The notes: generated from the sequence alone by a model not told the origin. A stretch of 64,000 nt of DNA from Escherichia coli (GCF_003019035.1 NZ_CP027447.1), one strand, 5' to 3'; positions 2,472 through 20,565 are shown, counted from the first letter of the stretch. Made by a program: numbers and translations.

Positions 2472-3524
2472 TCAAAGTTCCGCGTACATGCGACCGGGGT
2501 TAAACACGCCGCAAGGGTCGAGCTGCTGTTTAAGCTGCTGGTGATAGCGGAATAAAGGAGCCGGTAGCGGGGCAAAGCCACCATCTCCGGCACTAAAGCG
2601 GGTCGCATGACCGCCCGCGTTGCGGGCGATGCGATGGATTTGATTGTCATCGGCTGTCGATTTCAGCCAGCGTAGCGCCCCGCCCCAGTCGATCAGTTGC
2701 TCGCCGGGTAAATCTATCATCGGCGCATCGCTGGGTAAGGAAATGCGCCATAAGGTACCTGGTAACGAGAAGAACGGCAGTTGTTGTTCACGCAATTGCT
2801 GCCAGAACTGACCCGCAACCTCTTCGCCCCCCAGCAGTTCACGCGCTGCTTTTACCGATCCTTCGCCGCCCTCAAGGCGGATCCACAACGCATTGTCGAA
2901 GTAACATAAGCCACTAATGGGTAATGGCTGGAGTTGCCACTGGGCGATTTCATTCATGGCTTCTTGCAGGCTGATTTCCCGACGCAGGCTCAGGGAGGCG
3001 CGCGGTCGCGGTAACACTTTCATCGAGATTTCAGTGAGCACGCCAAGACAACCGTAGCTTCCGGCCATTAACCGTGAGAGATCGTATCCGGCAACGTTTT
3101 TCATCACTTCACCACCAAAACGCAGATGTTTTCCAGTGCCGGTAATGATGCGCGTGCCGAGGACAAAATCGCGGACCGAACCGCTCCACGGGCGACGCGG
3201 CCCCGCCAGCCCGCAGGCGACCATCCCGCCCCAGGTGGCTTCTTCACCATAATGTGGCGGCTCGCAGGGGAGCATTTGCCCGGCGCTCTCCAGCGCCGCT
3301 TCAATCGCCACCAGCGGCGTTCCGGCACGAGCGGTTATCACCAGCTCGGTCGGGTCGTAATTAACAATGCCGCGATGACAACGCACATCCAGCGTTTGCC
3401 CGGTGACAGGACGACCTAAAAAGGCTTTGCTATTGCTGCCCTGAATCACCAGCGGCGTTTTATCGCTAATCGCCTGATTCACCTGCTCCAGCAGCGCCTG
3501 GCTGTAATCACACTCGCGTAGCAT
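2472..3524 (-). CDS. glcE: glycolate oxidase FAD-binding subunit
   Basis: 350-aa ORF, FAD-binding PCMH-type domain; 1-nt overlap with glcD stop. Confidence 0.9.
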   Translation of the reverse strand: MLRECDYSQALLEQVNQAISDKTPLVIQGSNSKAFLGRPVTGQTLDVRCHRGIVNYDPTELVITARAGTPLVAIEAALESAGQMLPCEPPHYGEEATWGGMVACGLAGPRRPWSGSVRDFVLGTRIITGTGKHLRFGGEVMKNVAGYDLSRLMAGSYGCLGVLTEISMKVLPRPRASLSLRREISLQEAMNEIAQWQLQPLPISGLCYFDNALWIRLEGGEGSVKAARELLGGEEVAGQFWQQLREQQLPFFSLPGTLWRISLPSDAPMIDLPGEQLIDWGGALRWLKSTADDNQIHRIARNAGGHATRFSAGDGGFAPLPAPLFRYHQQLKQQLDPCGVFNPGRMYAEL

Positions 3525-6044: not shown

Positions 6045-7187
6045 TCAAATCTGCTTTTCATACAATCGGTAACGCTTGTACGGCTCCGCCCCAATGCGTT
6101 CCAGCATGTTATTCATGCCTGTATTGGTTTCGAGGATCCATGACATCTCCAGCGCATCGATCTTCCGGCGGGCAAACGGATCGCGTAAGGCTTCAATCAA
6201 TAACAACGCAATCACCGGGCCGATGCGGCTGAACTGATACTCGTCCCGCACGCCCATCAGCGGTACTCGCGCAGTTCGCACACCGCTGACTTTTAAACGC
6301 CACAGCAATTTTGCCCAGCCGAAGGGAAAGAGCGATCCGTTCAGATCGGCAATCGCCTCGTTGATGTTTGGCAAGCCGACAATAAACGCGCAGGGTGCAG
6401 AATCAATCTCAGCGATGTAGATCATATCGTCCGGCACCAGATATTTAAGTTGGTCGCCCATGGTCGCGAATTCATGTTCGGTAAACGGCACAAATCCCCA
6501 GTTGTGCTGCCAGCCAGAATTGAAAATCTCACGCAGGATCTGCATCTCTTCGGCAAACCGCTGGCGATTGATGCAGCGAATGGTCACCTTCTTACGCACC
6601 TGATCCATCAGTTTTTTTAGCGCCGGAGAGAAAGTGAGATCGGTTCGCTGCATCCACCACGCCAGTAAATCAATGCCTTTGTGATAACCCAATTGTTCAA
6701 TATGCGCGGCATACCACGGTTTACCGTGCGGCATCATCGCACAGGGTGGTGTATCGAAACCTTCAATCAGTAATCCGCTTTCCTGATTGATATTCAGGCT
6801 GAAAGGCCCGCTGATCTTACTTGCACCTTGTGACTTCAACCACGCTTCCGCTGCGCCAAACAACGCGGCAAAAACCTGCGGATCATCAATGGCGTCAATC
6901 ATGCCGAAATGACCGGTATCTTTGCCGTAACGCTCGCGGTGCAAGGTATCTATTTGCGCGGTAATACGCCCAACTATCTGCCCCGCTTTTTTTGCCACCC
7001 ACGCCTGCCAGATGATATGGTCCGTCCCCGGATTTTTCGCAGACAAATGCTCGTTGCGTTCAATGAATAAAGGGGGTATCCAGTTTGGATCGTCGGGATA
7101 AAGTGATGACGGAAAAGCGATAAATGCCTTAAGGTCATTTTTATTAATTACTTTTTCAATTTTAATCATCAGCAGATCGCATTCCAT
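6045..7187 (-). CDS. yghO: GNAT-like N-acyltransferase, candidate amine N-acylating enzyme (possible ceramide-synthase analogue)
   Basis: 380-aa ORF recognised as YghO; acyl-CoA N-acyltransferase-like fold assignment is from memory of the family, not a motif I can point to; start could be 7169 (MIKIEKV). Confidence 0.7.
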   Translation of the reverse strand: MECDLLMIKIEKVINKNDLKAFIAFPSSLYPDDPNWIPPLFIERNEHLSAKNPGTDHIIWQAWVAKKAGQIVGRITAQIDTLHRERYGKDTGHFGMIDAIDDPQVFAALFGAAEAWLKSQGASKISGPFSLNINQESGLLIEGFDTPPCAMMPHGKPWYAAHIEQLGYHKGIDLLAWWMQRTDLTFSPALKKLMDQVRKKVTIRCINRQRFAEEMQILREIFNSGWQHNWGFVPFTEHEFATMGDQLKYLVPDDMIYIAEIDSAPCAFIVGLPNINEAIADLNGSLFPFGWAKLLWRLKVSGVRTARVPLMGVRDEYQFSRIGPVIALLLIEALRDPFARRKIDALEMSWILETNTGMNNMLERIGAEPYKRYRLYEKQI

Positions 7188-7530
7188 AGTTCTGTGGGTA
7201 ACAAATAATTAACGGTGACAAACAGGTTGCAACAGCAACGAACGGCACCTTAATAATCAACCCAATGAATACAAACGACGAATAAATAGTATTTATTAAT
7301 GATTACGATAAGGTCAGAGACTACACAGAAGCGCCACAATGCCTTTTGTCGATTTAAGGCGACCGGACAAGGCTCCTTCTTAATATATTCATAAATTAAA
7401 TATCATTCACAATAAAAACAAAAAACTCAAATTCATTATTTAAATCAATGTTCATTTTCACACTGATGAAAATACTATCTCATTTATCTTTTATGCCTAT
7501 ATAATCCACCGCATTATTGTCATTTTATTT
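7188..7530. promoter_or_regulatory. AT-rich divergent control region between yghO and the lipid-synthesis operon
   Basis: 343-bp strongly AT-rich non-coding interval (runs such as aataaatagtatttattaatgatta) between divergent genes. Confidence 0.45.
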
Positions 7531-9282
7531 TTGATATCCAATTTTTTCGTGGTGTATATGTCTAATAAAATCTTTACGCATTCCCTACCTATGCGCTATG
7601 CCGATTTTCCAACGCTGGTTGATGCTTTGGACTATGCCGCTCTGAGTAGCGCTGGAATGAATTTTTATGACAGACGTTGCCAACTTGAAGATCAACTGGA
7701 ATATCAGACGTTAAAAGCGCGTGCCGAAGCTGGTGCGAAGCGGTTGTTATCGCTGAACCTGAAAAAAGGCGATCGCGTGGCACTGATTGCCGAAACCAGT
7801 AGCGGGTTCGTAGAGGCTTTTTTTGCCTGCCAGTATGCCGGCTTAGTCGCCGTCCCGTTGGCGATTCCCATGGGCGTCGGTCAGCGGGATTCCTGGAGCG
7901 CCAAGCTGCAGGGTTTACTGGCAAGTTGCCAGCCCGCAGCCATTATCACTGGTGATGAGTGGTTGCCACTGGTCAATGCCGCGACGCATAACAACAACCC
8001 CGAATTACATGTTTTAAGCCACGCCTGGTTTAAGGCATTACCGGAAGCCGATGTTGCGCTCCAGCGTCCAGTTCCGAACGATATCGCCTACCTCCAGTAC
8101 ACCTCCGGCAGCACCCGTTTTCCCCGTGGCGTCATTATCACCCATCGCGAAGTGATGGCTAATCTACGTGCTATAAGCCACGATGGCATAAAATTACGCC
8201 CTGGCGACCGCTGCGTCTCCTGGCTGCCTTTCTACCATGATATGGGACTGGTCGGCTTTCTCCTGACCCCCGTCGCCACGCAGCTTTCAGTAGATTATTT
8301 GCGCACTCAGGATTTTGCCATGCGTCCTCTGCAATGGCTTAAATTGATCAGTAAAAATCGCGGCACCGTTTCCGTTGCGCCGCCGTTTGGCTATGAATTG
8401 TGCCAGCGCCGCGTGAATGAAAAAGATCTCGCTGAACTGGATCTTTCCTGCTGGCGCGTCGCTGGTATTGGTGCAGAACCCATCTCCGCAGAACAACTCC
8501 ATCAATTCGCTGAATGTTTCCGTCAGGTCAACTTTGACGATAAAACTTTCATGCCGTGCTACGGACTGGCAGAAAATGCGCTGGCTGTCAGCTTCTCTGA
8601 TGAAGCTTCCGGGGTTGTGGTTAACGAAGTGGATCGCGACATCCTCGAATATCAGGGCAAAGCCGTCGCGCCGGATGCTGAAACACGCGCCGTATCGACT
8701 TTCGTCAACTGCGGTAAAGCGTTGCCGGAACATGGCATTGAAATCCGCAATGAAGCAGGTATACCTGTCGCGGAACGTGTGGTAGGCCATATTTGCATCT
8801 CCGGCCCTAGCCTGATGAGCGGTTACTTTGGCGACCAGATTTCACAAGACGAGATTGCCGCGACGGGCTGGTTAGACACCGGCGACCTCGGTTATCTGCT
8901 GGACGGTTATCTGTATGTCACCGGACGCATTAAAGATCTGATTATTATTCGTGGCCGTAATATCTGGCCGCAGGATATTGAATATATTGCGGAACAGGAA
9001 CCGGAAATTCATTCTGGCGATGCGATTGCTTTTGTTACCGCCCAGGAAAAAATCATTTTGCAGATCCAGTGTCGGATCAGCGATGAAGAACGTCGCGGGC
9101 AGCTTATCCACGCGCTGGCAGCACGGATCCAAAGCGAATTTGGTGTGACCGCGGCTATCGATCTGTTGCCGCCCCACAGTATTCCCCGAACGTCCTCCGG
9201 CAAGCCTGCCCGTGCGGAAGCGAAAAAACGTTATCAGAAGGCTTATGCTGCAAGCCTTCATGTGCAGGAATCCCTGGCATGA
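7531..9282 (+). CDS. fatty acyl-AMP ligase / acyl-ACP synthetase (AMP-binding superfamily)
   Basis: 583-aa ORF with adenylation motif YTSGSTRFPRGV and C-terminal SSGKPAR-type motif; start may be 7558 or 7591; stop overlaps next start (ATGA). Confidence 0.8.
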   Translation: MISNFFVVYMSNKIFTHSLPMRYADFPTLVDALDYAALSSAGMNFYDRRCQLEDQLEYQTLKARAEAGAKRLLSLNLKKGDRVALIAETSSGFVEAFFACQYAGLVAVPLAIPMGVGQRDSWSAKLQGLLASCQPAAIITGDEWLPLVNAATHNNNPELHVLSHAWFKALPEADVALQRPVPNDIAYLQYTSGSTRFPRGVIITHREVMANLRAISHDGIKLRPGDRCVSWLPFYHDMGLVGFLLTPVATQLSVDYLRTQDFAMRPLQWLKLISKNRGTVSVAPPFGYELCQRRVNEKDLAELDLSCWRVAGIGAEPISAEQLHQFAECFRQVNFDDKTFMPCYGLAENALAVSFSDEASGVVVNEVDRDILEYQGKAVAPDAETRAVSTFVNCGKALPEHGIEIRNEAGIPVAERVVGHICISGPSLMSGYFGDQISQDEIAATGWLDTGDLGYLLDGYLYVTGRIKDLIIIRGRNIWPQDIEYIAEQEPEIHSGDAIAFVTAQEKIILQIQCRISDEERRGQLIHALAARIQSEFGVTAAIDLLPPHSIPRTSSGKPARAEAKKRYQKAYAASLHVQESLA

Positions 9283-10193
9283 ATCAAACTGTCGCGGTGA
9301 CGGGCGCTACCGGGTTTATCGGTAAATATATTATCGATAACCTGCTCGCCCGCGGCTTTCACGTTCGCGCATTGACGCGTACTGCCCGTGCTCACGTCAA
9401 TGACAATCTCATCTGGGTGCGCGGTTCTCTGGAAGATACTCATTCACTTAGCGAACTGGTTGCCGGAGCCAGCGTGGTGGTCCATTGCGCCGGGCAAGTG
9501 CGCGGGCACAAAGAAGAGATTTTTACCCGCTGTAACGTTGACGGCAGCCTGCGACTGATGCAAGCGGCAAAAGAGAGCGGCTTTTGCCAACGTTTTCTGT
9601 TTATCTCTTCGCTGGCGGCGCGCCATCCCGAACTCTCCTGGTACGCAAATTCCAAACACGTCGCCGAACAACGGCTGACTGCAATGGCTGATGAAATTAC
9701 GCTGGGCGTTTTTCGCCCGACAGCCGTGTATGGTCCCGGCGATAAAGAGTTAAAACCGCTGTTTGACTGGATGCTGCGCGGCCTGCTGCCACGACTTGGT
9801 GCGCCAGATACACAACTCTCTTTCCTGCACGTCACCGATTTTGCGCAAGCAGTGGGTCAGTGGTTAAGCGCCGAAACTGTACAGACGCAAACCTATGAAT
9901 TATGCGATGGCGTCGCTGGCGGCTATGACTGGCAACGCGTACGACAGCTTGCCGCCGAAGCCCGTTGTGGTTCTGTGCAGATGGTTGGCATTCCTCTGCC
10001 GGTACTCACCTGCCTTGCGGATATCAGTACTGCGTTGAGTCGCCTGGCAGGTAAAGAACCTATGCTGACCCGCTCGAAAATTCGTGAATTAACCCACGCC
10101 GACTGGTCGGCAAATAATAACCGTATTTCTGAAGATATTAATTGGTTTCCCGGGATTAGCCTGGAACACGCATTACGCAACGGGCTATTTTGA
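9279..10193 (+). CDS. NAD(P)-dependent epimerase/dehydratase-fold reductase
   Basis: 304-aa ORF; N-terminal Rossmann motif VTGATGFIGKYI; translationally coupled to upstream ligase. Confidence 0.8.
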   Translation: MNQTVAVTGATGFIGKYIIDNLLARGFHVRALTRTARAHVNDNLIWVRGSLEDTHSLSELVAGASVVVHCAGQVRGHKEEIFTRCNVDGSLRLMQAAKESGFCQRFLFISSLAARHPELSWYANSKHVAEQRLTAMADEITLGVFRPTAVYGPGDKELKPLFDWMLRGLLPRLGAPDTQLSFLHVTDFAQAVGQWLSAETVQTQTYELCDGVAGGYDWQRVRQLAAEARCGSVQMVGIPLPVLTCLADISTALSRLAGKEPMLTRSKIRELTHADWSANNNRISEDINWFPGISLEHALRNGLF

Positions 10194-10224
10194 TTGTCTT
10201 GTTTAAAGGTGTGTTAACGTTTCT

Positions 10225-10473
10225 ATGGTAAATCGTGAAATAGTAATGGATTACATCCTTTCCTGTTTACAGGATTTGGTCGAAAACGGTGTGGAAATTA
10301 AGCCCAACAGCGATCTCGTCAACGATCTTGGCCTGGAGTCGATCAAAGTGATGGATCTCTTAATGATGCTGGAAGACAGATTCGATATTTCCATTCCTAT
10401 TAATATTCTGCTGGATGTCAAAACCCCTGTGCAATTAATGGAAACTCTACTTCCATGGCTGGAGAATAAATAA
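10225..10473 (+). CDS. acyl carrier protein (dedicated)
   Basis: 82-aa acidic ORF with phosphopantetheine-attachment-type motif DLGLESIKVMDL; stop overlaps next start (TAATG); start may be 10246. Confidence 0.75.
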   Translation: MVNREIVMDYILSCLQDLVENGVEIKPNSDLVNDLGLESIKVMDLLMMLEDRFDISIPINILLDVKTPVQLMETLLPWLENK

Positions 10474-11645
10474 TGGGGCTATACGATAAATATGCGCGCC
10501 TTGCTGGCGAGCGACTGCAATTTAGTGACAACGGGTTAACGCCGTTTGGTACCTGTATTGATGAAGTGTATTCCGCCACCGAAGGTCGGATCGGCAATAA
10601 AAAAGTGATTCTGGCCGGGACCAATAATTATCTCGGTTTAACCTTTAATCATGATGCCATCGCCGAAGGTCAGGCAGCGTTAGCGGCCCAAGGCACCGGC
10701 ACCACCGGTTCTCGTATGGCTAATGGCAGTTATGCGCCGCATCTGGCGTTAGAGAAAGAGATTGCCGAGTTTTTCAATCGCCCTACCGCTATCGTTTTTT
10801 CAACCGGTTATACCGCTAATTTAGGCGTCATCAGCGCACTTGCCGACCATAACGCCGTGGTGTTACTGGATGCCGACAGCCACGCCAGTATTTATGACGC
10901 CTGTTCTCTCGGTGGCGCGGAAATTATTCGTTTCCGCCATAACGATGCTAAAGATCTGGAACGGCGCATGGTTCGCCTCGGTGAACGGGCGAAAGAGGCG
11001 ATTATCATCGTTGAGGGCATCTACAGCATGCTCGGTGACGTTGCGCCGTTAGCGGAAATTGTTGATATCAAACGTCGTCTCGGTGGTTATTTGATTGTCG
11101 ATGAAGCGCATTCGTTTGGCGTGTTAGGCGCAACGGGGCGCGGACTGGCTGAAGCCGTTGGCGTTGAAGATGATGTGGATATTATCGTTGGTACTTTCAG
11201 TAAAAGTCTGGCCTCGATTGGCGGTTTTGCTGTCGGTTCGGAAGCGATGGAAGTGTTGCGCTACGGCAGCCGCCCGTATATTTTTACCGCCTCTCCTTCT
11301 CCGTCCTGCATTGCGACCGTGCGCTCGTCGTTAAGAACCATTGCCTCACAACCAGAGCTGCGGCAAAAGCTGATGGATAACGCCAACCATCTGTATGACG
11401 GTCTGCAAAAACTGGGTTATGAGTTAAGTTCACATATTAGCCCGGTAGTGCCGGTAATAATCGGTTCGAAAGAGGACGGTTTACGCATCTGGCGCGAGCT
11501 TATTTCGCTGGGCGTTTATGTGAATCTTATCCTGCCACCTGCCGCGCCTGCAGGCATCACTCTGCTGCGCTGTAGCGTAAACGCTGCCCACAGTCATGAG
11601 CAAATCGATGCCATCATTCAGGCATTTGCTACTCTGAAGCAGTAA
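10473..11645 (+). CDS. PLP-dependent alpha-oxoamine synthase (serine palmitoyltransferase / KBL / BioF family)
   Basis: 390-aa ORF; class-II aminotransferase fold with PLP-lysine motif GTFSKSLASIGGF; K-12 bioF and kbl are located elsewhere. Confidence 0.8.
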   Translation: MGLYDKYARLAGERLQFSDNGLTPFGTCIDEVYSATEGRIGNKKVILAGTNNYLGLTFNHDAIAEGQAALAAQGTGTTGSRMANGSYAPHLALEKEIAEFFNRPTAIVFSTGYTANLGVISALADHNAVVLLDADSHASIYDACSLGGAEIIRFRHNDAKDLERRMVRLGERAKEAIIIVEGIYSMLGDVAPLAEIVDIKRRLGGYLIVDEAHSFGVLGATGRGLAEAVGVEDDVDIIVGTFSKSLASIGGFAVGSEAMEVLRYGSRPYIFTASPSPSCIATVRSSLRTIASQPELRQKLMDNANHLYDGLQKLGYELSSHISPVVPVIIGSKEDGLRIWRELISLGVYVNLILPPAAPAGITLLRCSVNAAHSHEQIDAIIQAFATLKQ

Positions 11646-11679
11646 TGTGAGCCCGCCGTGGTGTTGCGCCACGGCGGGT

Positions 11680-12759
11680 TTAATGTTGTCTGTCATACCA
11701 ATACACCAGGCTCAACGCCATCAGGACAAACGCTACCGGTAAACCGAGCGCGGTAACAGGTGCACTCAACGCAAATAGCAACCCCAGATTGACCATGATT
11801 TGATAGCTGATCCAGGTGAGTAAGCCAACGATGACGCCTACAGCGAGACGGCTACCCATCCCTGGCGAGCGCGGGGCGCTAAAGGTGAACGGCACAGCCA
11901 GCAAAATCATCGCCAGGGTCAGGATCGGTTGCCCCAGTTTTTCCCACAGTGCAAGGCGGTATTCGCTGCTGGGTTGTCCGGTTTCCTGCAAATAATGGAT
12001 GTAATGATTAAGCTGACGGACAGAAAAAGTATTCCCCGGCATCGATAACTCTTCAAGATCCATACTGGTGAAGGCCGATTGCCAGGCAAGATTATCTGAT
12101 GTTTCCAGCGTTTCTTTGCCATTCAACCATTTTTTATGATTCACACCATGCAGGATCCACGTTTTGTCGTCTTCAATGGAGGCACTGCGTGCAAAAATGT
12201 AGGATTCGAGCGAGAGATCGTCGCGATAATGAAATATCTCCACGCCCACAGGCTGGCCCTGCTCGTTCAGCGATTTCACCGTCACAAATTCATTACCGCG
12301 CCTGGCCCAAAGCATATTGCCGGTAATGTCATCGTCCTCCCCCAACGCGGTGGCAGTCGATTTGATTTGCAGCGCCTGTTGCTGCAATGGCGACGCCACC
12401 CACTCATCTATCGCGCCTAACGAAACAGTCCACAATATCCCGGCAACCAGCGCCACCAGTGCAATACGGAAGATAGAAAACCCAGTGCTGCGAATGGCGG
12501 TAAGCTCACTGTTTTTCGATAACTGCCCCAGGCCAACAATCCCTCCCAATAATGCGATAAATGGCGAAAGTTCGACCAGTGTACGCGGTAAGGTCATCAG
12601 CACCACCAGCACCGCCTGAGTCCAGCGATAACCGCCCGGGCTGACATCATCCAGTTCGTTAATCAGGTTGAAGGTGGTAAAAAGCGGCAGCAATAGCCCT
12701 GCGGCGGCGGCAAAACCGAGAAAGAGATGACGGATTAAATAGCGACTGAAAACATTCAT
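11680..12759 (-). CDS. LptG-like permease (YjgP/YjgQ family)
   Basis: Multi-pass membrane ORF; start set at MNVFSRYLIRH so that it overlaps the upstream gene stop by 4 nt (longest ORF extends to 12840). Confidence 0.7.
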   Translation of the reverse strand: MNVFSRYLIRHLFLGFAAAAGLLLPLFTTFNLINELDDVSPGGYRWTQAVLVVLMTLPRTLVELSPFIALLGGIVGLGQLSKNSELTAIRSTGFSIFRIALVALVAGILWTVSLGAIDEWVASPLQQQALQIKSTATALGEDDDITGNMLWARRGNEFVTVKSLNEQGQPVGVEIFHYRDDLSLESYIFARSASIEDDKTWILHGVNHKKWLNGKETLETSDNLAWQSAFTSMDLEELSMPGNTFSVRQLNHYIHYLQETGQPSSEYRLALWEKLGQPILTLAMILLAVPFTFSAPRSPGMGSRLAVGVIVGLLTWISYQIMVNLGLLFALSAPVTALGLPVAFVLMALSLVYWYDRQH

Positions 12760-13826
12760 CGGGAAAATTTCTGCAGCAAAGAGAAGTCGCGTGCGACCAG
12801 CATCAGCAGGCCCATTAGCATGAGTCCGGGTACTAACCACAAACCAGGAATGAGGGGAATCGCACCGTTAGCCACCAGCGTACGGCAGACGTCGCCGCCA
12901 TAAAAAATGGCAACAAACAGCAACGTCAGTGGCAATAACGTTGAAAATCGCCCTTGCCGCGGTTTTACCCGACTTAATGAAATGGCCAGCAGCGCCATCA
13001 ACAATGCGGTCAGGCCACGGCTTTGTCGCCATTGCAGTTCGGCATGATCGGCTGGAAAGACGGAGCGCGCCAGCTCCGTGACCGATTTTGCTTTGCGTTT
13101 GACGTTAGGGCTTTGATCCAGCTGATTCAGATGTAATTGCAGATTACGGTAGATCTGTTCGTTGTCGTCACGCCCCTGATGATCGAGAAGATAGGCGGTC
13201 CCGTTATGCAACATAACGGTCGGTTTCTCAGGTGATGGGTCAACCACATCAACCGAACGGGCGCGGAAAATGCGGGTTCGATTGGCAGTAGAAGTATAAA
13301 TCAGCGCGTCAGTCAGGCGATTATTATCCTGATCAACCGTCTGCGAAAGGATCATTCGTCCGTTATCGTTAGTGTTAAATTTCTTTGCCCGCAACTGGCG
13401 AACATCCAGCTCCGACTGCGACTGTTGCTCCAGTTGATAAATCTGCGCATAAGCCCACGGCCGACCATACATCGACAGAAGGGTGACAAAAATACTTAGC
13501 GGTATCGCCAGATAAAGAACGGCTTTGTACAAGCGTCCCGGACTGCCCCCCGCCGCAGAGATAGCGGTAATTTCCGAGTCGGTATACATCTGCCCTAGCG
13601 TCACGCCAACTGACACATACAGACCAACAGGTAACAACATCTCCAGTGCAATCAGCACTTTGTAGAAAACGATATCCAGCACAACATCAAGAGCTAAGGT
13701 CCCATTTGCCGCTTCGGTCAGATAACGCTGTGCGGAGTAGCTGGCGAAAATAAAGATCAGAAAACCGACGATAATCAGCACCAGACGGCGCGTACCACGC
13801 ATGATGTAGTGTTCAACCAGCTTCAT
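12756..13826 (-). CDS. LptF-like permease (YjgP/YjgQ family)
   Basis: 356-aa ORF, N-terminal TM helices, large periplasmic loop, C-terminal TM helices; paired with LptG-like gene. Confidence 0.7.
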   Translation of the reverse strand: MKLVEHYIMRGTRRLVLIIVGFLIFIFASYSAQRYLTEAANGTLALDVVLDIVFYKVLIALEMLLPVGLYVSVGVTLGQMYTDSEITAISAAGGSPGRLYKAVLYLAIPLSIFVTLLSMYGRPWAYAQIYQLEQQSQSELDVRQLRAKKFNTNDNGRMILSQTVDQDNNRLTDALIYTSTANRTRIFRARSVDVVDPSPEKPTVMLHNGTAYLLDHQGRDDNEQIYRNLQLHLNQLDQSPNVKRKAKSVTELARSVFPADHAELQWRQSRGLTALLMALLAISLSRVKPRQGRFSTLLPLTLLFVAIFYGGDVCRTLVANGAIPLIPGLWLVPGLMLMGLLMLVARDFSLLQKFSR

Positions 13827-13856: not shown

Positions 13857-14420
13857 TTATTCATTGATCAGTTTCTGCGCCAGCGCAATGACATGATCTA
13901 CCTCTTCCGGCGTCAGGCTGCCGTCCTTTGCCCACTGAATTTGCCCGTCTTTATTCAGCACCAGAATGGTTGAACTCTGCTCCGGCAACCGCCAGGCAAC
14001 GCGTCCCAGTCCATTGCCGTCAATAACGAATTGCGCCCACGGATAGCGGCGTTTATTTTTTTCGATTTTGCCAACGACAAAATAGCCAGTACCGAAGATG
14101 GCATCATCGGTGTTCACAATGGTGGTGGGCTGAAAACGATCCTGCGGAAAGTTTGCCGCTTCAACCGCTTTAATTAACAGTGAGTTCTTTTTCTTCGCCG
14201 ACTTACGCCCGGCGATATACTGAATAATGCGGACTTTTCCCGCCAGCTGTGTGCTGTTCCACTTTTGGTAGTGAATTTCGTCGTCGCTATTCAGAAGCAG
14301 CTCGCCGCCTTCCTGGATATAAACGGGGGTAACCGTTTTGCCAGTGACGAAATTGTGTGCCTGCACACCCTGGGCTAAGAGCATGATAATCAGCGCAATA
14401 ATCAAACGAGATGACATCAT
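13857..14420 (-). CDS. secreted/periplasmic protein of unknown function (possibly thioredoxin-like fold)
   Basis: 187-aa ORF with N-terminal signal peptide MMSSRLIIALIIMLLAQGVQA; fold assignment is a guess. Confidence 0.55.
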   Translation of the reverse strand: MMSSRLIIALIIMLLAQGVQAHNFVTGKTVTPVYIQEGGELLLNSDDEIHYQKWNSTQLAGKVRIIQYIAGRKSAKKKNSLLIKAVEAANFPQDRFQPTTIVNTDDAIFGTGYFVVGKIEKNKRRYPWAQFVIDGNGLGRVAWRLPEQSSTILVLNKDGQIQWAKDGSLTPEEVDHVIALAQKLINE

Positions 14421-14428
14421 TGCTCCGG

Positions 14429-15253
14429 TTATAGCGGAAAACGCGAAATCAGCAGCTCTAAGCGCTGGCGAATATCGCTATCCAGCGCCACCGGTGCATC
14501 ATACGACTGGCGGTTTTCCATATCATCCGCCACCATGTCGTCGTGTTTATCCCCCATCAGGCCATTAATGGCGGCGAGGAAGCGGGAAATCTGTAACGCC
14601 TCTTTATTTTCAGGATCAAGCGATCTTAAGGTGTCGTAATAAGAAACCTGCTGGCTGATGATTTTTCGCACATCATGAAATTCCCTGCCGGTGAGTCGCG
14701 GTTTGGCAATTATCTCTTTCAGGGTATGCATTTGCTTTTGCCGATAGGCAATAAAACCGCTTACGCTTTCTAACTGGCTATGGCGTAATGAATAGTTCAC
14801 CAACGACCAGACCGGAGAGCTTAAATAAACCCGTAACAGGTTGCCGTAATACGACACAATATTTTTCTTACCGTTACGAAAACCGTCCTGAAAACGCCCC
14901 AAAAAAACGGTCGTTTTGCCGAATAAAAATCCGGCCTGATGCTTCTTTAAATACAGCCGTTGCGCAAAACGCAGGTGCTTGTAGCGCGCTCGCATGTATT
15001 TATACTTTTTGCGCTCATCGTCGGTAAGTATTTTGCCTTTTGCTTGTTTCAGCGTTAAGCGAAGTAACTCTTTGCGATTTACACCATCCAGCCAGAATCT
15101 CAAACATAAGGCATAATTGTCATGAATAATCTCCGGTGAACAGCGCAAAGTGATCGTTGGCGGCAAGCTAACCTGTGTGTCAATAACATCATTATCATCA
15201 ACAGCAATAAATAAACGCTCAATGACCTCAAGTGGAAAGTATTTTCTCATCAT
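14429..15253 (-). CDS. hypothetical basic protein, no recognisable domain
   Basis: 274-aa ORF; start overlaps yghQ stop (ATGA coupling) so likely translated. Confidence 0.55.
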   Translation of the reverse strand: MMRKYFPLEVIERLFIAVDDNDVIDTQVSLPPTITLRCSPEIIHDNYALCLRFWLDGVNRKELLRLTLKQAKGKILTDDERKKYKYMRARYKHLRFAQRLYLKKHQAGFLFGKTTVFLGRFQDGFRNGKKNIVSYYGNLLRVYLSSPVWSLVNYSLRHSQLESVSGFIAYRQKQMHTLKEIIAKPRLTGREFHDVRKIISQQVSYYDTLRSLDPENKEALQISRFLAAINGLMGDKHDDMVADDMENRQSYDAPVALDSDIRQRLELLISRFPL

Positions 15254-16602
15254 TGGAATTTTTCTCCGACTCCGTTATAGACCAATAAATGGCGACGGAG
15301 AAAAGTCCTTAATGTCGGTGCTAACGACAGGATCACATCCAGACATTGACCACCGAAATAAGCAAATGCAGCCCCCATTACGCCAAACAGATGACAAAAC
15401 ATAAACAACAAAATAACGTAAGCTAACGATGCAATAGTTTGTGCTATCAAAAAAGCGCGCTGTTTTCCCGCCATCAATAGCAATGACTCCTGAGGGAAGC
15501 CCAGCATCGAGATCACAATTGCGCCCAGCATCACCTGAATCAGGTCATACGCTTCGAGATACTTAACGCCAAACACCAGCGAAATAAGCGGCTTGCCGAC
15601 GATCAACACCGCGAGCGCCACCAGAATTCCGATTCCGCCCGCCAGTAAACCTGACTTCACGCCTAACAACCACGGTCTGGTGGTGCGCGGATCTAAACGC
15701 ATCACCTCTGGGTAAAAACTTTTGCCCAGTAAACCCGCTGGCGTTCCGGCGGCGTCGAAGAATGTCATGGCGATTTTAAATAACCCGGCGGCAGCGGGTC
15801 CTAACACGATCCCCACCAGCACTGTGCTGCACGAGTTACGCGCCGACCAGATGGAGTGGGCAATGTTGGTTGACCAGACAAAACTCCACGCGCCTTTGAT
15901 GTGTCGGGCAGACTCAAACAGATTCAATTTGAACGCGTTATGGATATTTCTGCGGCGTAATTCGCGCGCGGCAAACCACCAGTACATGGTGCCGCCAACC
16001 AGATTCGACACGTACCAGGCAATAACAAAGCCCGCAAAACCAAAGTCAAAATACCAGGCTACGACGCTCCCCGCTGCGCGCAGAAAAGGTTTCGTCGCTT
16101 GCTGTACAGCAATTAGATCGAAGCGATCTACCGCACGCAGAATGCCGGTCGGCGTGGAGGAAGCCATTGAAGGAATGAGCGTGCAATACAGCGCTGCCAG
16201 CCAAAAGCTTTGGTCATCCAGACCTAATGAATGGGAAAGAAAAGGGAGTAAGGCAATGCCGCCGACAATCGCCACCGCGCCGCTGACGATATCCAGCGAG
16301 AAGGAAAATGAGACGACATTGCGGAATTGCTGCGGATTATTGTTGGTTAATGCTGGTGTTCCGTACTGAACCACCAGCTGCCATGTCTGAAACTTAATAA
16401 AATCGCTGATCGACTTGGCGTACGATTGTACAATCACCAGTACGCCAAACATGGCGGGCGTCATCCCTTTACCGGCACACGAGAGCGCCAACAGACCCAG
16501 TAAAGCGCTCACGACATTACTGGAGCCTAACCAGGCGCTATTGCGAATAATGGTGCGAAACGCGCCATCTGCAAACCAATGTTTGATGTTAAAACCCGCC
16601 AA
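15250..16602 (-). CDS. yghQ: MOP-superfamily (Wzx/MurJ-like) flippase, full length
   Basis: 450-aa polytopic membrane ORF; recognised as YghQ but longer than the 355 aa I recall for K-12; start uncertain. Confidence 0.75.
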   Translation of the reverse strand: MAGFNIKHWFADGAFRTIIRNSAWLGSSNVVSALLGLLALSCAGKGMTPAMFGVLVIVQSYAKSISDFIKFQTWQLVVQYGTPALTNNNPQQFRNVVSFSFSLDIVSGAVAIVGGIALLPFLSHSLGLDDQSFWLAALYCTLIPSMASSTPTGILRAVDRFDLIAVQQATKPFLRAAGSVVAWYFDFGFAGFVIAWYVSNLVGGTMYWWFAARELRRRNIHNAFKLNLFESARHIKGAWSFVWSTNIAHSIWSARNSCSTVLVGIVLGPAAAGLFKIAMTFFDAAGTPAGLLGKSFYPEVMRLDPRTTRPWLLGVKSGLLAGGIGILVALAVLIVGKPLISLVFGVKYLEAYDLIQVMLGAIVISMLGFPQESLLLMAGKQRAFLIAQTIASLAYVILLFMFCHLFGVMGAAFAYFGGQCLDVILSLAPTLRTFLRRHLLVYNGVGEKFQ

Positions 16603-16647: not shown

Positions 16648-17406
16648 TTAAGTTAAACTTCGGCGGTCAGAAACGATGGCAACCAGAGAAACCGCCTTCT
16701 GTGCCTGTTCCAGCACTTCGCTGTAAGGCGCTCTGGAATCAATCTCAAGAATTTTTGTGCCGTTATAGCCAATCGTCGACATGACGCCGATTTTGTCCTG
16801 CAGCTCGGCATAGTCATGGTCAGGCTTGCGGGAGATGGCAGTATCAATATCAATCCCCAAACGAATGATTAATTCAGGACGGTATTGCGCCATTTGTTGG
16901 TATAAACGCCGTTCGCGCTGCGCCAGAAACATGCTGATTTTCCCGGTCGCACGTTCGACGCCGATCCCCGGTCCGTCATAATAAAAGCCCGAAATTTCAG
17001 CCTGCGGGAAGCGATCGCTGACCACCAGAACGCCACTTTGCGCCAGTCGCTGAACCTTGCGTAGATTCGCCATTCTTCGCAGCGAGAAGCAGTACATAAT
17101 CACCGCCGCCCATACCGCCGGAGATTTGGTTTTCATGCTTTGGGTTTTCGAGGATTTGGCCGCCAGTCGCCGTTCGAGCCAGACGCCAACCAACGGCAAT
17201 CGTTTGATTTTGTCGCCGTCTTCGCCCGAGAGCAGCCCCAGATAGCGCCGCTCGGTTTGCCAGTGTTGTTGCAGCGATTTCACGAGGTCGGTGGTCAGTG
17301 TGGATTTACCGGTGCCATCACACCCGACCACCGCAATCAGCCCCGGAATGTAGTTGGGCTGCGGCGCGGTTGTACTATTAACAGTTTGTGTTTGTAGTGC
17401 GTCCAT
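16648..17406 (-). CDS. yghR: P-loop NTPase/kinase-like protein
   Basis: Walker A GCDGTGKST; conserved SDRFP and ARKPDH motifs shared with yghS and yghT; no ABC signature LSGGQ. Confidence 0.8.
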   Translation of the reverse strand: MDALQTQTVNSTTAPQPNYIPGLIAVVGCDGTGKSTLTTDLVKSLQQHWQTERRYLGLLSGEDGDKIKRLPLVGVWLERRLAAKSSKTQSMKTKSPAVWAAVIMYCFSLRRMANLRKVQRLAQSGVLVVSDRFPQAEISGFYYDGPGIGVERATGKISMFLAQRERRLYQQMAQYRPELIIRLGIDIDTAISRKPDHDYAELQDKIGVMSTIGYNGTKILEIDSRAPYSEVLEQAQKAVSLVAIVSDRRSLT

Positions 17407-17437
17407 TCGTTAAATCATCCCCTATCCATTTTGGTGA

Positions 17438-18151
17438 TCAGGAAAGCGCAGCGTGAATTGCGCGTAGTGACGCTTGCAGAATTTCATCGGCTGGTTGCCG
17501 ACCATCCAGTTCAAGGATCTTTGCGCCATTGAATGTCAGTTGCGGCGTAACGGCGATTTTTTCCTGTAACGCTGCCAGTTGGTGGTCAGGTTTACGCGCA
17601 AACGCGGTTTGTTCATCAATGCCAAGACGAATCAACAATACGGGCAAATAAGACGCCATCCATTGGTACAGCTTCAGCTCGCGCTGCCTTAACATTTTTA
17701 TCCAACCGTTACCGCCCGTGGTTTTTGCCAATTGCGGGCCATCAAAGCGAAAACCCGGCACTTCAACCTGCGGGTAGCGGTCGGTGATGAGCAGATAGCC
17801 TTGCTGGCTTTTACACAACATTTTGCGAAACTTGTACGCCCGCCAGCAGGAAAGCAGATAGATAACCAGCGCAGTAATATTGCCAGGCGGTGTGGAGGGC
17901 TTTTCGTGCACATGTGCCGCTTTACTTCGCAGATAACGCCCAAAAGGTGCGCCAATAACAGGGAGCTGTGAAATCCATTCGCCAATTCGCCCGGACGATT
18001 GCCCGAGATAAATGTGTTCTGTTGGCATTGTTGCTGCCAGTTCATTTACCAGGCTTGCCGTGAGGGTCGATTTACCTGAACCATCACATCCTACAATGGC
18101 AATAACACGCACTGGCGTGGAATTAATTATTGACATATTACGTTGATTCAC
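17438..18151 (-). CDS. yghS: P-loop NTPase/kinase-like protein (paralogue of yghR)
   Basis: Walker A GCDGSGKST; TDRYP and ARKPDH motifs. Confidence 0.8.
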   Translation of the reverse strand: MNQRNMSIINSTPVRVIAIVGCDGSGKSTLTASLVNELAATMPTEHIYLGQSSGRIGEWISQLPVIGAPFGRYLRSKAAHVHEKPSTPPGNITALVIYLLSCWRAYKFRKMLCKSQQGYLLITDRYPQVEVPGFRFDGPQLAKTTGGNGWIKMLRQRELKLYQWMASYLPVLLIRLGIDEQTAFARKPDHQLAALQEKIAVTPQLTFNGAKILELDGRQPADEILQASLRAIHAALS

Positions 18152-18324
18152 GAAAAACCCGGCAGCAAATAATGTATTGAATATTACGTGGTCCGTGCTC
18201 AGAATATCCGTTCAACCTTATTGTGACAATGGTTAATTGTGACATTGACCTGAATTACGCTTTCATAAAAACATATTAACCAAATAAATATTTTTAATGG
18301 ATATTTAAATTAAAGGATATATTC

Positions 18325-19017
18325 ATGCAGTCAATAACACCTCCATTAATTGCCGTTATTGGTAGCGATGGTTCAGGCAAGTCAACGGTGTGTGAACATC
18401 TCATTACCGTTGTCGAAAAATATGGTGCTGCCGAAAGAGTTCATTTAGGAAAACAGGCCGGAAATGTCGGTCGTGCAGTGACAAAATTACCGTTGATGGG
18501 AAAATCCTTACATAAAACAATTGAACGAAATCAGGTGAAAACAGCAAAAAAATTGCCAGGACCAGTTCCGGCGCTGGTAATTACAGCGTTTGTCGCCCGT
18601 CGCTTACTGCGCTTTCGTCATATGCTTGCCTGTCGTCGTCGCGGGTTAATTGTTCTAACCGACCGTTATCCTCAGGACCAAATTCCTGGCGCTTACGATG
18701 GTACAGTGTTCCCACCTAACATTGAAGGTGGTCGTTTTGTCTCATGGCTGGCAAGCTAGGAACGTAAAGCGTTTCACTGGATGGCGAGCCATAAACCGGA
18801 TCTGGTCATCAAACTCAATGTTGACCTTGAAGTTGCCTGCGCGCGTAAACCCGACCATAAACGGGAATCGCTGGCGAGGAAGATTGCCATAACGCCACAG
18901 TTAACCTTTGGCGGTGCACAACTGGTTGATATCGATGCTAATCAGCCACTGGAAAAGGTGCTGATTGATGCAGAAAAAGCGATTACGGATTTTATGACCG
19001 CGCGTGGTTATCACTAG
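18325..19017 (+). pseudogene. yghT: P-loop NTPase/kinase-like protein interrupted by an in-frame TAG at 18757-18759
   Basis: 144-aa and 78-aa ORFs are in the same frame; the 693-nt span is 231 codons (230 aa plus stop) with one internal TAG; Walker [10 protein letters not shown]. Confidence 0.6.
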
Positions 19018-19027
19018 TCAAAAATGG

Positions 19028-19058
19028 AAATGCCCGATCGCCAGGACCGGGCATTTTC
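19028..19058. terminator. stem-loop terminator between convergent yghT and pitB
   Basis: aaatgcccg / cgggcattt inverted repeat with 11-nt loop followed by TTTTC. Confidence 0.5.
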
Positions 19059-19065
19059 AGGAAGG

Positions 19066-20565
19066 TTAAATCAACTGCAATGCTATCCAGTACAACCCAC
19101 CAGAAAGAAAAATCGCCGCCGGTAAAGTAAACACCCACGCCATCAGGATGCTGGTTACCGTTTTACGCTGTAACCCACCGCCGTCCACCACCATCGTCCC
19201 TGCTACCGCAGACGAGAGGACGTGTGTTGTGGAGACGGGCATCCCAATATAACTGGCAAGGCCGATAGACACTGCCGCCGTCATTTGTGCCGCCATGCCT
19301 TGCGCATACGTCATGCCGCGCTTACCAATCTTCTCACCGATGGTCATCGCTACACGACGCCAGCCAATCATGGTGCCGATGCCGAGCGCCAGTGCTACCG
19401 CCATGATGATCCACACCGGTGCGTACTCAATGGTGCTTAACATATCGCTGCGCAGTTTTTTCAGCAGGTTCTGGTCTTCTTTACTGACGCCTGGCAGTTT
19501 CGCCAGCTTCGCGGAGGTATCAGAGATGCACAGCATAATGCGGCGCAGCTGGCTGCGCTGACTCACGCTTAACGGCTCGTAACTTTCCATATTGCCTGGC
19601 AGCATCGTTTTAACGCGCGCAATCGCATCAAAGGTATTTGCCGGATGACAGTGAAACTCTGTTACTTGCGTGCCATCAGTCGATGTCGCAGGCAATGGAG
19701 GTTCCATCGTAATCAACTTCTGCGGCAGTTCAGGATGCTGTTGCAGGTAGTGTTCGAAGTTGGTGACGGCATCGCGGGTACGGGTAATTTCATAGCCGGA
19801 CGCGTTCATATTGACGACGAAGCCAGCAGGGGCAATCCCCACCAGTACCAGCATCACCAGGCCGATCCCTTTCTGCCCGTCGTTCGCGCCGTGCGAAAAC
19901 GCCACGCCCGCAGCGGAAACAATCAGCGCAATACGCGTCCAGAATGGCGGCTTACGTTTGCCTTTTTTCTTTTTGCGATCTTCCGGAATGCGGTGAATAC
20001 GGTCACGCTTTTTCGTCCCGCTCCAGAAACGGCGCAGCAGGAAAATCAGACCACCCGCAATGACCAGGCCGACGATAGGGGAAACAATCAGCGAGGAGAA
20101 AATTTTGGTCACTTCACGCAGGTTTAACGCATCCATCACCGATGAGCCGGTTAACAGCGCGTTGGTTAAACCGATGCCGATAATCGCACCAATCAAGGTA
20201 TGCGAACTGGAGGCCGGTAAACCAAAGAACCACGTTCCCAGGTTCCAGATAATCGCCGCCAGCAGCATGGAAAAGACCATCGCCAGGCCGTGAGTTGACC
20301 CCATATTCAGCAACAAATCGGTTGGCAACATATGGACAATGGCATAGGCAACGCTAAGTCCGCCTAGCAATACGCCAAAAAAGTTAAAAAATGCCGCCAT
20401 CACCACAGCAAGTTGTGGTTGCATGGCACGAGTATAAATAACGGTTGCCACCGCATTCGCCGTGTCATGAAAACCATTGATTGCTTCGTAGAACAACACA
20501 AATGCCAGAGCAAGTAATAACAAAAGCCCTGTGTATATATCAAGGCCAACAAATAAATTTAGCAT
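19066..20565 (-). CDS. pitB: low-affinity inorganic phosphate transporter
   Basis: 499-aa ORF with PitA/PitB-type sequence ([35 protein letters not shown]); position next to yghT. Confidence 0.9.

Follow-up and report, generated by a model that had tools for sequence, protein, structure and literature searches.

Three thymidylate-kinase-like paralogs, YghR, YghS and YghT, as candidate head-group enzymes of the Escherichia coli sphingolipid locus

The genes yghR, yghS and yghT of Escherichia coli lie beside a locus for the synthesis and export of sphingolipids and encode three related P-loop proteins. They are described here from a stretch of 64,000 nucleotides (GCF_003019035.1, NZ_CP027447.1), the whole of which is referred to as the window. 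A preliminary description, made from the sequence alone, had picked out three paralogous P-loop genes with kinase-like motifs in a tandem plus divergent arrangement, and open reading frames (ORFs) are indeed found where it placed them (Table 1). The layout is also as described, with yghS followed by yghR after a gap of 31 bp and with yghT facing away from both across a spacer of 173 bp. In BLASTP comparisons YghR and YghS share 44% identity over 218 amino acids (aa) (E 8e-63), and YghS and YghT share 37% identity over 217 aa (E 9e-54). These similarities are far above chance, and the three proteins are paralogs. The feature is real and no artefact. The genes are already named, and, in agreement with the earlier claim that they are uncharacterized, no function is assigned to any of them in the literature searched, including PMC9386255.

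All three proteins carry the expected Walker A motif, G(C/S)DG(T/S)GKST, which in the alignment reads GCDGTGKST in YghR, GCDGSGKST in YghS and GSDGSGKST in YghT. They also carry the (S/T)DR(F/Y)P motif that had been noted, found as SDRFPQ in YghR and as TDRYPQ in both YghS and YghT. A further motif, ARKPDH, which forms part of the lid, had been reported as common to the trio; it is exact in YghS and YghT, and YghR has SRKPDH. The kinases are basic, with isoelectric points (pI) of 9.6-9.9. No LSGGQ-type signature of ATP-binding cassette (ABC) ATPases is present in the alignment of the three proteins, as had been stated, and no ABC fold was found either. Fold comparison instead gave the three-layer thymidylate-kinase / nucleoside monophosphate (NMP) kinase fold, with its P-loop, DRX motif and lid, which agrees with the view of these proteins as kinase-like rather than as ABC subunits.

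The count of three proteins holds for the ORFs, but the earlier reading overlooked that yghT is interrupted by an in-frame amber codon. The intact yghT ORF of the window extends over positions 18325-18759 only, and the ARKPDH motif falls 3' of the stop. Codon 145 is CAG in E. coli SCU-301 and in nearly all other strains, and the C-to-T change in yghT is one of just four differences between the window and SCU-301 in 36.6 kb. The remaining single-base differences lie at window positions 3233, 19549 and 31906. An exact 61-mer that includes the TAG is confined to 5 of 4606 complete E. coli genomes, of which at least 4 have serotype O55:H7, and in O55:H7 strain RM12579, which has the same allele, RefSeq lists yghT as a pseudogene with an 'internal stop'. 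In the window strain, therefore, only YghR and YghS can function.

Table 1. Features in and around the yghRST genes, in window positions
Feature	Position	Strand	Description
yghO	6045-7187	-	Bacterial ceramide synthase / N-acyltransferase homolog (RefSeq annotation)
aasR-cerR-acpR-spt	7558-11645	+	Ceramide-precursor operon, convergent with the kinase operon (RefSeq annotation)
Hairpin, 16-bp stem	11648-11682		10 G-C pairs; between the stop codons of convergent spt and lptG2
lptG2	11680-12759	-	lptG paralog; last gene of the minus-strand operon (RefSeq annotation)
lptF2	12756-13826	-	lptF paralog (RefSeq annotation)
YtfJ-family gene	13857-14420	-	Periplasmic protein; TIGR01626, E 3e-64
Gene for 274-aa protein, unnamed	14429-15253	-	Predicted CHAD-like; 4-nt overlap with the yghQ stop; annotated 'hypothetical protein'
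yghQ	15250-16602	-	Flippase of the MOP family (Wzx-like), next gene after yghR; E 3e-9 against the NCBIfam MOP flippase model
yghR	16648-17406	-	R-type thymidylate-kinase-fold P-loop kinase, 252 aa; RefSeq 'ATP-binding protein YghR'
yghS	17438-18151	-	S-type thymidylate-kinase-fold P-loop kinase, 237 aa; heads the 7-gene minus-strand operon
yghS/yghT divergent promoter region	18152-18324		173 bp, AT-rich; GC ~0.44-0.45 against ~0.52 in the flanks
Sigma-70-like site	18229-18201	-	Within the yghS/yghT spacer
yghT	18325-19017	+	T-type paralog, divergent; pseudogene in the window
Premature TAG in yghT	18757-18759	+	Gln145 to amber; cuts YghT to 144 aa, upstream of RKPDH
Hairpin, 12-bp stem	19028-19056		Between convergent yghT and pitB
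pitB	19066-20565	-	Phosphate transporter; adjoins yghT, convergent

The relationship of the trio to thymidylate kinases becomes apparent with a profile of the family. Searches of Pfam and, with phmmer, of the PDB that start from the single YghS sequence return P-loop-level matches only, and the family profile was needed to reach the thymidylate kinases, which it matches in the PDB with E 1e-11. In the profile alignment the P-loop including its Asp, the S-x-x-R helix ('FSANR' in thymidylate kinases), the DRY motif and the lid are all in register with thymidylate kinases, the lid aligning as 'KPDVVFYLNV...NR' against 'kPdLvirLnvd..A..RKP', and both of the phosphate-clamping arginines of thymidylate kinases are kept. 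In deoxythymidine monophosphate (dTMP) kinases and in PPK2s, the arginine of the DRX motif clamps the donor and acceptor phosphates (PMC12995831). The tests for membership of the dTMP kinase family, on the other hand, are failed. Against TIGR00041, which has a cut-off of 83.25 bits, YghR scores 30.9, YghS 24.8 and YghT 25.5 bits; the match of YghS to Pfam PF02223 (Thymidylate_kin) is below significance, with an independent E-value (i-E) of 0.025; all three groups of orthologs have (Y/H)LGxxxG in place of the 'FPxR / REPGG' dTMP-binding segment that follows beta-2; and the kinases harbor an insertion of ~30 aa relative to thymidylate kinases. Because the motifs align while the family tests fail, the alignments identify YghR, YghS and YghT as members of the thymidylate-kinase superfamily that fail as true dTMP kinases by these tests and are not ABC ATPases.

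RefSeq/PGAP gives the products of yghS and yghT the name 'dTMP kinase'. This name is probably wrong, and looks like an over-annotation that extends across thousands of genomes. A separate and essential tmk gene is present in E. coli; its product, Tmk (PF02223, TIGR00041), shares the fold with the YghRST proteins, whereas these fall below the family cut-off, have the dTMP segment replaced and occur as three paralogs at a lipid locus. No match to a diacylglycerol/sphingosine-kinase catalytic domain was found in YghR, YghS or YghT with Pfam or NCBIfam, and a PADLOC scan for anti-phage defence systems gave P-loop-level noise only. The preliminary description had counted it as evidence against its own reading if the proteins proved to be nucleotide kinases or ABC-type subunits with no lipid substrate, or if their distribution were uncoupled from the rest of the locus; the fold is nucleotide-kinase-like, but the dTMP kinase family tests failed, and the distribution is coupled to the lipid locus.

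This distribution was surveyed by scanning one genome per species, which gave 78 loci with 201 kinase copies. The taxa encompass Enterobacterales, the Xanthomonadales-type genera Rhodanobacter and Luteibacter, Carnimonas, Azomonas, Halioglobus, Nitrotoga, Gallionellaceae, Rhodocyclaceae, Methylotenera, Sphingomonadales, Acetobacter, Myxococcales and others. Grouped by average linkage of their identity distances, the copies fall into three orthogroups, R (62 copies), S (~70) and T (62), with 57-61% identity inside the groups and 36-45% between them, and with T as the outgroup to R and S. Among the 53 loci of at least 18 kb, referred to as long loci (27 from Enterobacterales and 26 from other proteobacterial taxa), 41 contain a single gene of each of the three types. 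Alpha-, beta- and gammaproteobacteria all have examples of the layout with yghT divergent and yghS-yghR in tandem; Sphingopyxis and Acetobacter have the order S-R-T-yghQ, sometimes followed by the gene for the CHAD-like protein described below, all on one strand, and natural S-R fusion proteins also exist (P0121, P0122 and P0124). The P-loop, SxxR, DR[YF]PQ and RKPDH motifs are kept in R, S and T, with DR[YF]PQ at least 90% conserved in each, and the orthogroups diverge mainly after beta-2, which is the acceptor region of thymidylate kinases. Since the motifs are kept in all three and the divergence lies after beta-2, the pattern is consistent with three active enzymes that differ in their acceptors, or with a heteromer, and not with redundancy.

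The minus-strand operon of the window runs yghS-yghR-yghQ-274-aa ORF-ytfJ-like-lptF2-lptG2, with gaps of 31, 45, -4, 8, 30 and -4 bp. The 274-aa protein encoded next to the YghQ flippase is all-helical and forms two four-helix bundles, like those of solved CHAD structures, in a confident fold match. Judged by this structural match, it has a CHAD-like (polyphosphate-binding-type) fold, which is newly identified here. Arg, Lys and His residues are invariant across its family, among them R88, K92, H93, R95, H193 and R196, and the protein has a pI of 9.6. CHAD domains bind inorganic polyphosphate specifically (PMC6537752). Nothing relevant on CHAD together with sphingolipids was found in the literature searched. 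The gene for the 274-aa protein is duplicated in some loci, with two tandem copies in Luteibacter (L037) and two in L040.

To count the neighbors of the kinases, all ORFs of the 78 loci were clustered into families. The commonest neighbor families are the genes of the E. coli locus itself: YghQ is found in 51 loci, at a median gap of 127 bp, the 274-aa protein in 50, Spt in 45 (within 10 kb of the kinases), CerR in 44, AasR in 39, YtfJ in 31 (all of the Enterobacterales type), LptF2 in 30, LptG2 in 29 and YghO in 26. Outside Enterobacterales a DUF2147-like periplasmic protein is present in place of YtfJ. The suggestion that the kinases are coupled to a lipid locus is strengthened by these counts. 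Every one of the 27 long Enterobacterales loci has Spt no more than 10 kb from the kinases; among the 26 other long loci, ceramide genes are found in 11, and YghQ or the 274-aa protein in 20. In Serratia the entire block from yghT to lptG2 is inverted and adjoins spt, which shows that this block moves as a unit.

Next in frequency come homologs of enzymes that modify lipids or their phosphates. These include an OlsC/LpxO-like acyl hydroxylase (17 loci, every copy on the kinase strand), a DgkA-like kinase (DAGK_prokar; 15 loci), an LpxE-like PAP2 phosphatase (15 loci), a SepP/PgpB-like PAP2 phosphatase (8 loci) and an LmtA-like lipid-phosphate O-methyltransferase (11 loci). For each of the 10 LmtA-like copies measured, a kinase gene is found no more than 300 bp away, in 9 cases on the same strand. 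Many Enterobacterales, Serratia and Rosenbergiella among them, and also Carnimonas have the DgkA-like gene at the border of the sphingolipid locus (for instance L002, from Serratia marcescens, at 2279-2644, and L030, from Carnimonas, at 12218-12679), and outside Enterobacterales the kinases are operonic with the LmtA-like methyltransferases and both PAP2 types (L064 at 7067-7807, L058 at 2113-2658 and L061 at 12497-13168). Homologs of LmtA, LpxE, PgpB, SepP and DgkA are thus operonic with the R, S and T kinases in other proteobacteria; they are accessory in those taxa, absent from the E. coli window and have no homology to YghRST. That homologs of enzymes which modify the phosphates of lipid A share operons with the kinases argues that the product of the pathway is a phosphorylated membrane lipid.

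A known system with a comparable arrangement is PPK3 (Saci_2019/Saci_2020), an archaeal polyphosphate kinase whose gene signature is a pair of thymidylate-kinase paralogs together with a CHAD gene, and whose subunits, although annotated as dTMP kinases, have no dTMP kinase activity (PMC12995831). The yghRST locus resembles it in its adjacent thymidylate-kinase paralogs, in the presence of a predicted CHAD-type gene in the operon and in the dTMP kinase misannotation. Both elements of the PPK3 signature recur beyond E. coli, the tandem pair as yghS-yghR in three proteobacterial classes and the CHAD neighbor as the 274-aa gene in 50 of the 78 loci. PPK3, in contrast, is made of two paralogs, whereas yghRST usually has three and is set, together with a MOP flippase, inside a locus for making and exporting sphingolipids. 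No specific sequence affinity of YghR, YghS or YghT to the PPK3 homolog of S. tokodaii (PDB 2plr/5h70) was found.

The preliminary description had drawn an analogy with the ceramide kinase step in Caulobacter, and this does not stand at the level of the protein. CpgB (CC_1160), which is the ceramide kinase of Caulobacter, is a member of the diacylglycerol/sphingosine-kinase family and no P-loop enzyme (PMC11324152, S1 Text), so that the analogy is at most one of function or position in the pathway. The Caulobacter and E. coli loci have in common bCerS/yghO, AasR, CerR, AcpR, Spt, LptF2G2 and a Polysacc_synt-type flippase; YghO has been equated with CC_1154 (aca / bCerS), the five ceramide genes of the E. 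coli B lineage have been published, and the AasR, AcpR and Spt orthologs of E. coli B / BL21 have been assayed biochemically (PMC9386255). The CPG2 genes of Caulobacter (CC_1152, 1153 and 1158-1161), which encode CpgB, nucleotidyltransferases, a CDP-alcohol transferase and a phosphoesterase, have no counterpart in the E. coli locus, and E. coli-type loci have instead the thymidylate-kinase-like trio, the CHAD-like protein and YtfJ. Homology between YghRST and the Caulobacter head-group genes was rejected on the published domain assignments (PMC11324152). The trio, the CHAD-like protein and YtfJ look like an alternative head-group module, and by analogy each of the two modules presumably yields an anionic sphingolipid of the outer membrane. 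Caulobacter LptF2G2 are implicated in the export of sphingolipids, with the housekeeping LptB as their binding partner (bioRxiv 10.64898/2026.04.12.717747). A further candidate role for YghRST, as the missing ATPase of LptF2G2, was rejected on this account and on the lack of an ABC signature or fold.

Taken together, the motifs and the genomic context make it somewhat probable that the kinases act as head-group phosphotransferases of the sphingolipid pathway in some form. A more specific proposal, which is tentative and to which we would give rather less than an even chance, is that the trio, the CHAD-like protein and YghQ form a head-group module whose phosphotransferases build a di- or oligophosphate on ceramide. 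Thymidylate kinases phosphorylate a phosphate and not a hydroxyl, and for this reason, together with the CHAD-fold partner, the data favor phosphoanhydride chemistry, with di- or oligophosphate products, over simple phosphorylation of ceramide. In such a scheme, ceramide would be provided by YghO, AasR, CerR, AcpR and Spt and would receive its first phosphate from a DgkA-type kinase, which many relatives encode next to the locus and whose part the housekeeping DgkA could play in E. coli. E. coli DgkA phosphorylates ceramide in vitro. The thymidylate-kinase-like enzymes would then use ATP at the cytoplasmic face to place phosphate on the phosphate of the ceramide, as with dTMP and PPK3, and so give a di- or oligophosphate. 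YghS and YghR may work as a pair or heteromer, and YghT may act on a different acceptor or at a later step and be dispensable in some lineages, including the window strain. The CHAD-like protein would hold the phosphate chain, YghQ would flip the lipid, and LptB2-LptF2G2 with YtfJ would take it to the outer membrane; in other taxa, the phosphates may be trimmed or capped by the PAP2 phosphatases and LmtA-like methyltransferases. Cargo linked to a lipid diphosphate is typical of MOP flippases.

So far only the first steps of the E. coli sphingolipid pathway (AasR, AcpR and Spt) have been studied, and the conserved module of trio, CHAD-fold protein and YghQ offers a concrete candidate for the missing head-group chemistry, distinct from the CPG2 route of Caulobacter. 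New here are the thymidylate-kinase fold with failed dTMP kinase membership, the ancient R, S and T orthogroups with their synteny, the CHAD-fold partner and the PPK3-like signature within a sphingolipid export locus; nothing relevant on 'bacterial sphingolipid' with 'thymidylate kinase' was found in the literature searched. If the proposal is true, it would be the second case, after archaeal PPK3, of thymidylate-kinase paralogs in phosphate-chain chemistry. Carried to its full extent, it would mean a new class of lipid in most E. coli and many proteobacteria: a ceramide bearing phosphoanhydride-linked oligo- or polyphosphate, made by a PPK3-like YghS/YghR(/YghT), held by a CHAD-like chaperone, flipped by YghQ and carried by LptB2F2G2 to become an anionic surface lipid that resembles lipopolysaccharide. 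We regard this extended version as unlikely, but a phosphate-rich sphingolipid at the surface of E. coli would bear on outer-membrane biology, on polymyxin and cationic peptides and on host recognition.

Several observations weigh against the oligophosphate proposal. One member of the trio, at the least, can be dispensed with, as the nonsense loss of yghT in the window and in strains of O55:H7 shows. The E. coli locus in the window has no dgkA of its own, and ~600 E. coli genomes, including K-12, carry yghRST without spt. The E. coli 274-aa protein has no match to the Pfam CHAD family (PF05235), and of 36 members of its family only 1 matches at E <= 1e-3 (best 2.6e-5) and 2 at E <= 0.1. The likeness to PPK3 is also incomplete. 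The regulatory subunit of PPK3 lacks the DRX arginine, whereas all of the YghR, YghS and YghT groups keep it, and so no regulatory subunit is evident among them. Unlike PPK3, the window locus has no ppx or sixA nearby, and the family profile scores canonical thymidylate kinases at 48 bits and the PPK3 homolog 2plr at 29.5 bits. No sphingolipid product of the E. coli locus is described in the literature searched. Finally, members of the broader family are also found in polysaccharide loci of the Wzx/Wzy type that have neither a CHAD gene nor spt, and the family is therefore not intrinsically specific to sphingolipids.

This broader family was recovered with the profile as 2167 cluster representatives. 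Among the best 150 representatives, about one third have an extra N-terminal domain of ~250 aa, which has no Pfam match and whose consensus includes ...YCHWKSNEHLEEALAGETDLDLLVD.... Natural fusions join a MOP flippase, this domain and the kinase (P0216 and P0268), or a GT4 glycosyltransferase and the kinase (P0249), and P0169 is a further distant relative of this kind. In L083 (5721-9482), a locus with Wzy, GT4 and sulfotransferase genes, a Polysacc_synt flippase is followed by a fused kinase and then by a second paralog. No CHAD-like gene was found in the polysaccharide-locus relatives L083-L086. That the N-terminal domain might correspond to the 274-aa neighbor was ruled out, with E 0.23 in a hidden Markov model (HMM) search and a probability of 0.9% in hhalign. 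The superfamily branch as a whole is linked to MOP flippases and to membrane-linked substrates generally, of which R, S and T with the CHAD-like protein are the sphingolipid version.

Among the other ways of reading these data, it is rather unlikely, though worth weighing, that the trio are plain hydroxyl kinases, in line with the preliminary description, each paralog acting on another hydroxyl of the long-chain base or ceramide (C1-OH, C3-OH or the acyl 2-OH) to give mono-, bis- or tris-phosphorylated ceramide with no phosphoanhydride bonds. Deoxynucleoside kinases have an ERS-type motif with a catalytic Glu. The motif of the trio is DR[YF], as in thymidylate kinases, both phosphate-clamping arginines are kept, and the CHAD-like protein and DgkA-like neighbors would be left unexplained. 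The fusions and the polysaccharide locus L083 are what would be expected if the kinases served YghQ-type flippases generally, with polyprenyl-linked, glycan or other cargo and with the link to spt secondary to a shared export route. YghQ is moreover the most frequent and the closest neighbor, and ceramide genes are missing from the surrounding 10 kb in 15 of the 26 long loci outside Enterobacterales. However, no glycosyltransferase or polyprenyl-phosphate transferase is present in the E. coli-type locus, the R/S/T clade co-localizes with Spt in 45 of the 78 loci, and the relatives in polysaccharide loci form a more distant branch with the extra N-terminal domain. The unlinked cases include Sphingomonadales and Acetobacter, which do produce sphingolipids. 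In Sphingomonadaceae, the rhodobacterial spt genes are scattered (PMC9386255). A general flippase role is accordingly given only a small share of probability.

An equally improbable reading is that the proteins form a soluble PPK3-like kinase that makes polyphosphate, or uses it for ATP, for instance as a local supply for export, and leaves the lipid unmodified. The PPK3 gene signature (PMC12995831) is its main attraction, and pitB, which abuts yghT in 10 enterobacterial loci, could be counted with it. E. coli already has PPK1, however. Neither ppx nor sixA nor pst occurs in the window locus or among the recurrent neighbor families, where only pitB abuts yghT, every paralog has the DRX arginine that the regulatory subunit rPPK3 lacks, no specific affinity to 2plr was found, and the operons contain a flippase and lipid-modifying enzymes rather than polyphosphate genes. 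The fold, the register of the motifs and the RefSeq name would suit real kinases of dTMP or other NMPs, which either provide nucleotides for head-group activation or are redundant tmk paralogs, and the head-group pathway of Caulobacter has been proposed to include activation that depends on nucleoside triphosphates (PMC11324152). The scores of 25-31 bits against the TIGR00041 cut-off, the weak PF02223 match of YghS and the replaced dTMP segment all oppose this, three conserved orthogroups at one lipid locus would be unexpected for nucleotide salvage, no nucleotidyltransferase is present in the E. coli locus, and the PPK3 subunits have no dTMP kinase activity despite their name (PMC12995831). 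We consider it the least probable of the readings and very unlikely. Scarcely more probable is that the proteins are NTPases with a regulatory or scaffolding role, gating YghQ or LptF2G2 through the binding or hydrolysis of ATP and phosphorylating no substrate. Flippase fusions do exist and the sphingolipid loci have no dedicated ATPase for LptF2G2, but the missing ABC signature and fold, and the binding of Caulobacter LptF2G2 to housekeeping LptB, speak against such a role, as does the conservation of every kinase catalytic motif, acceptor-clamping arginines and lid included, in all three orthogroups.

Strains with an intact locus include BL21(DE3), 536 and SCU-301; in K-12 much of it has been lost. 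In MG1655 (NC_000913.3, 3130146-3131340) an IS5 element (IS5LO/insH9) has taken the place of a region that reaches from yghO (5' end) to yghQ (3' part), and the remnant consists of truncated yghO and yghQ with intact yghR, yghS and yghT. This loss explains why more genomes have yghRST (4743 of 5426 complete E. coli genomes) than spt (4134 of 5426, or about three quarters). The loss of most of the locus from K-12 is probably also why yghRST were never assigned a function.

With regard to expression, overexpression of SlyA in K-12 raises yghS 3.1-fold, and yghS is cross-listed with published regulon and binding data sets coded 'K, O' (PMC5797941), which we take to be H-NS binding studies. Given the induction by SlyA and these presumed H-NS data sets, the locus is probably silenced under laboratory conditions. 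An FlhDC peak from systematic evolution of ligands by exponential enrichment (SELEX) has been located in the yghS/yghT spacer (PMC9962212). The hairpin between spt and lptG2 is likely to be a bidirectional terminator. The adjacency of pitB and yghT, which is seen in Escherichia, Pseudocitrobacter, Hafnia and Citrobacter, may be a coincidence or may be tied to phosphate supply.

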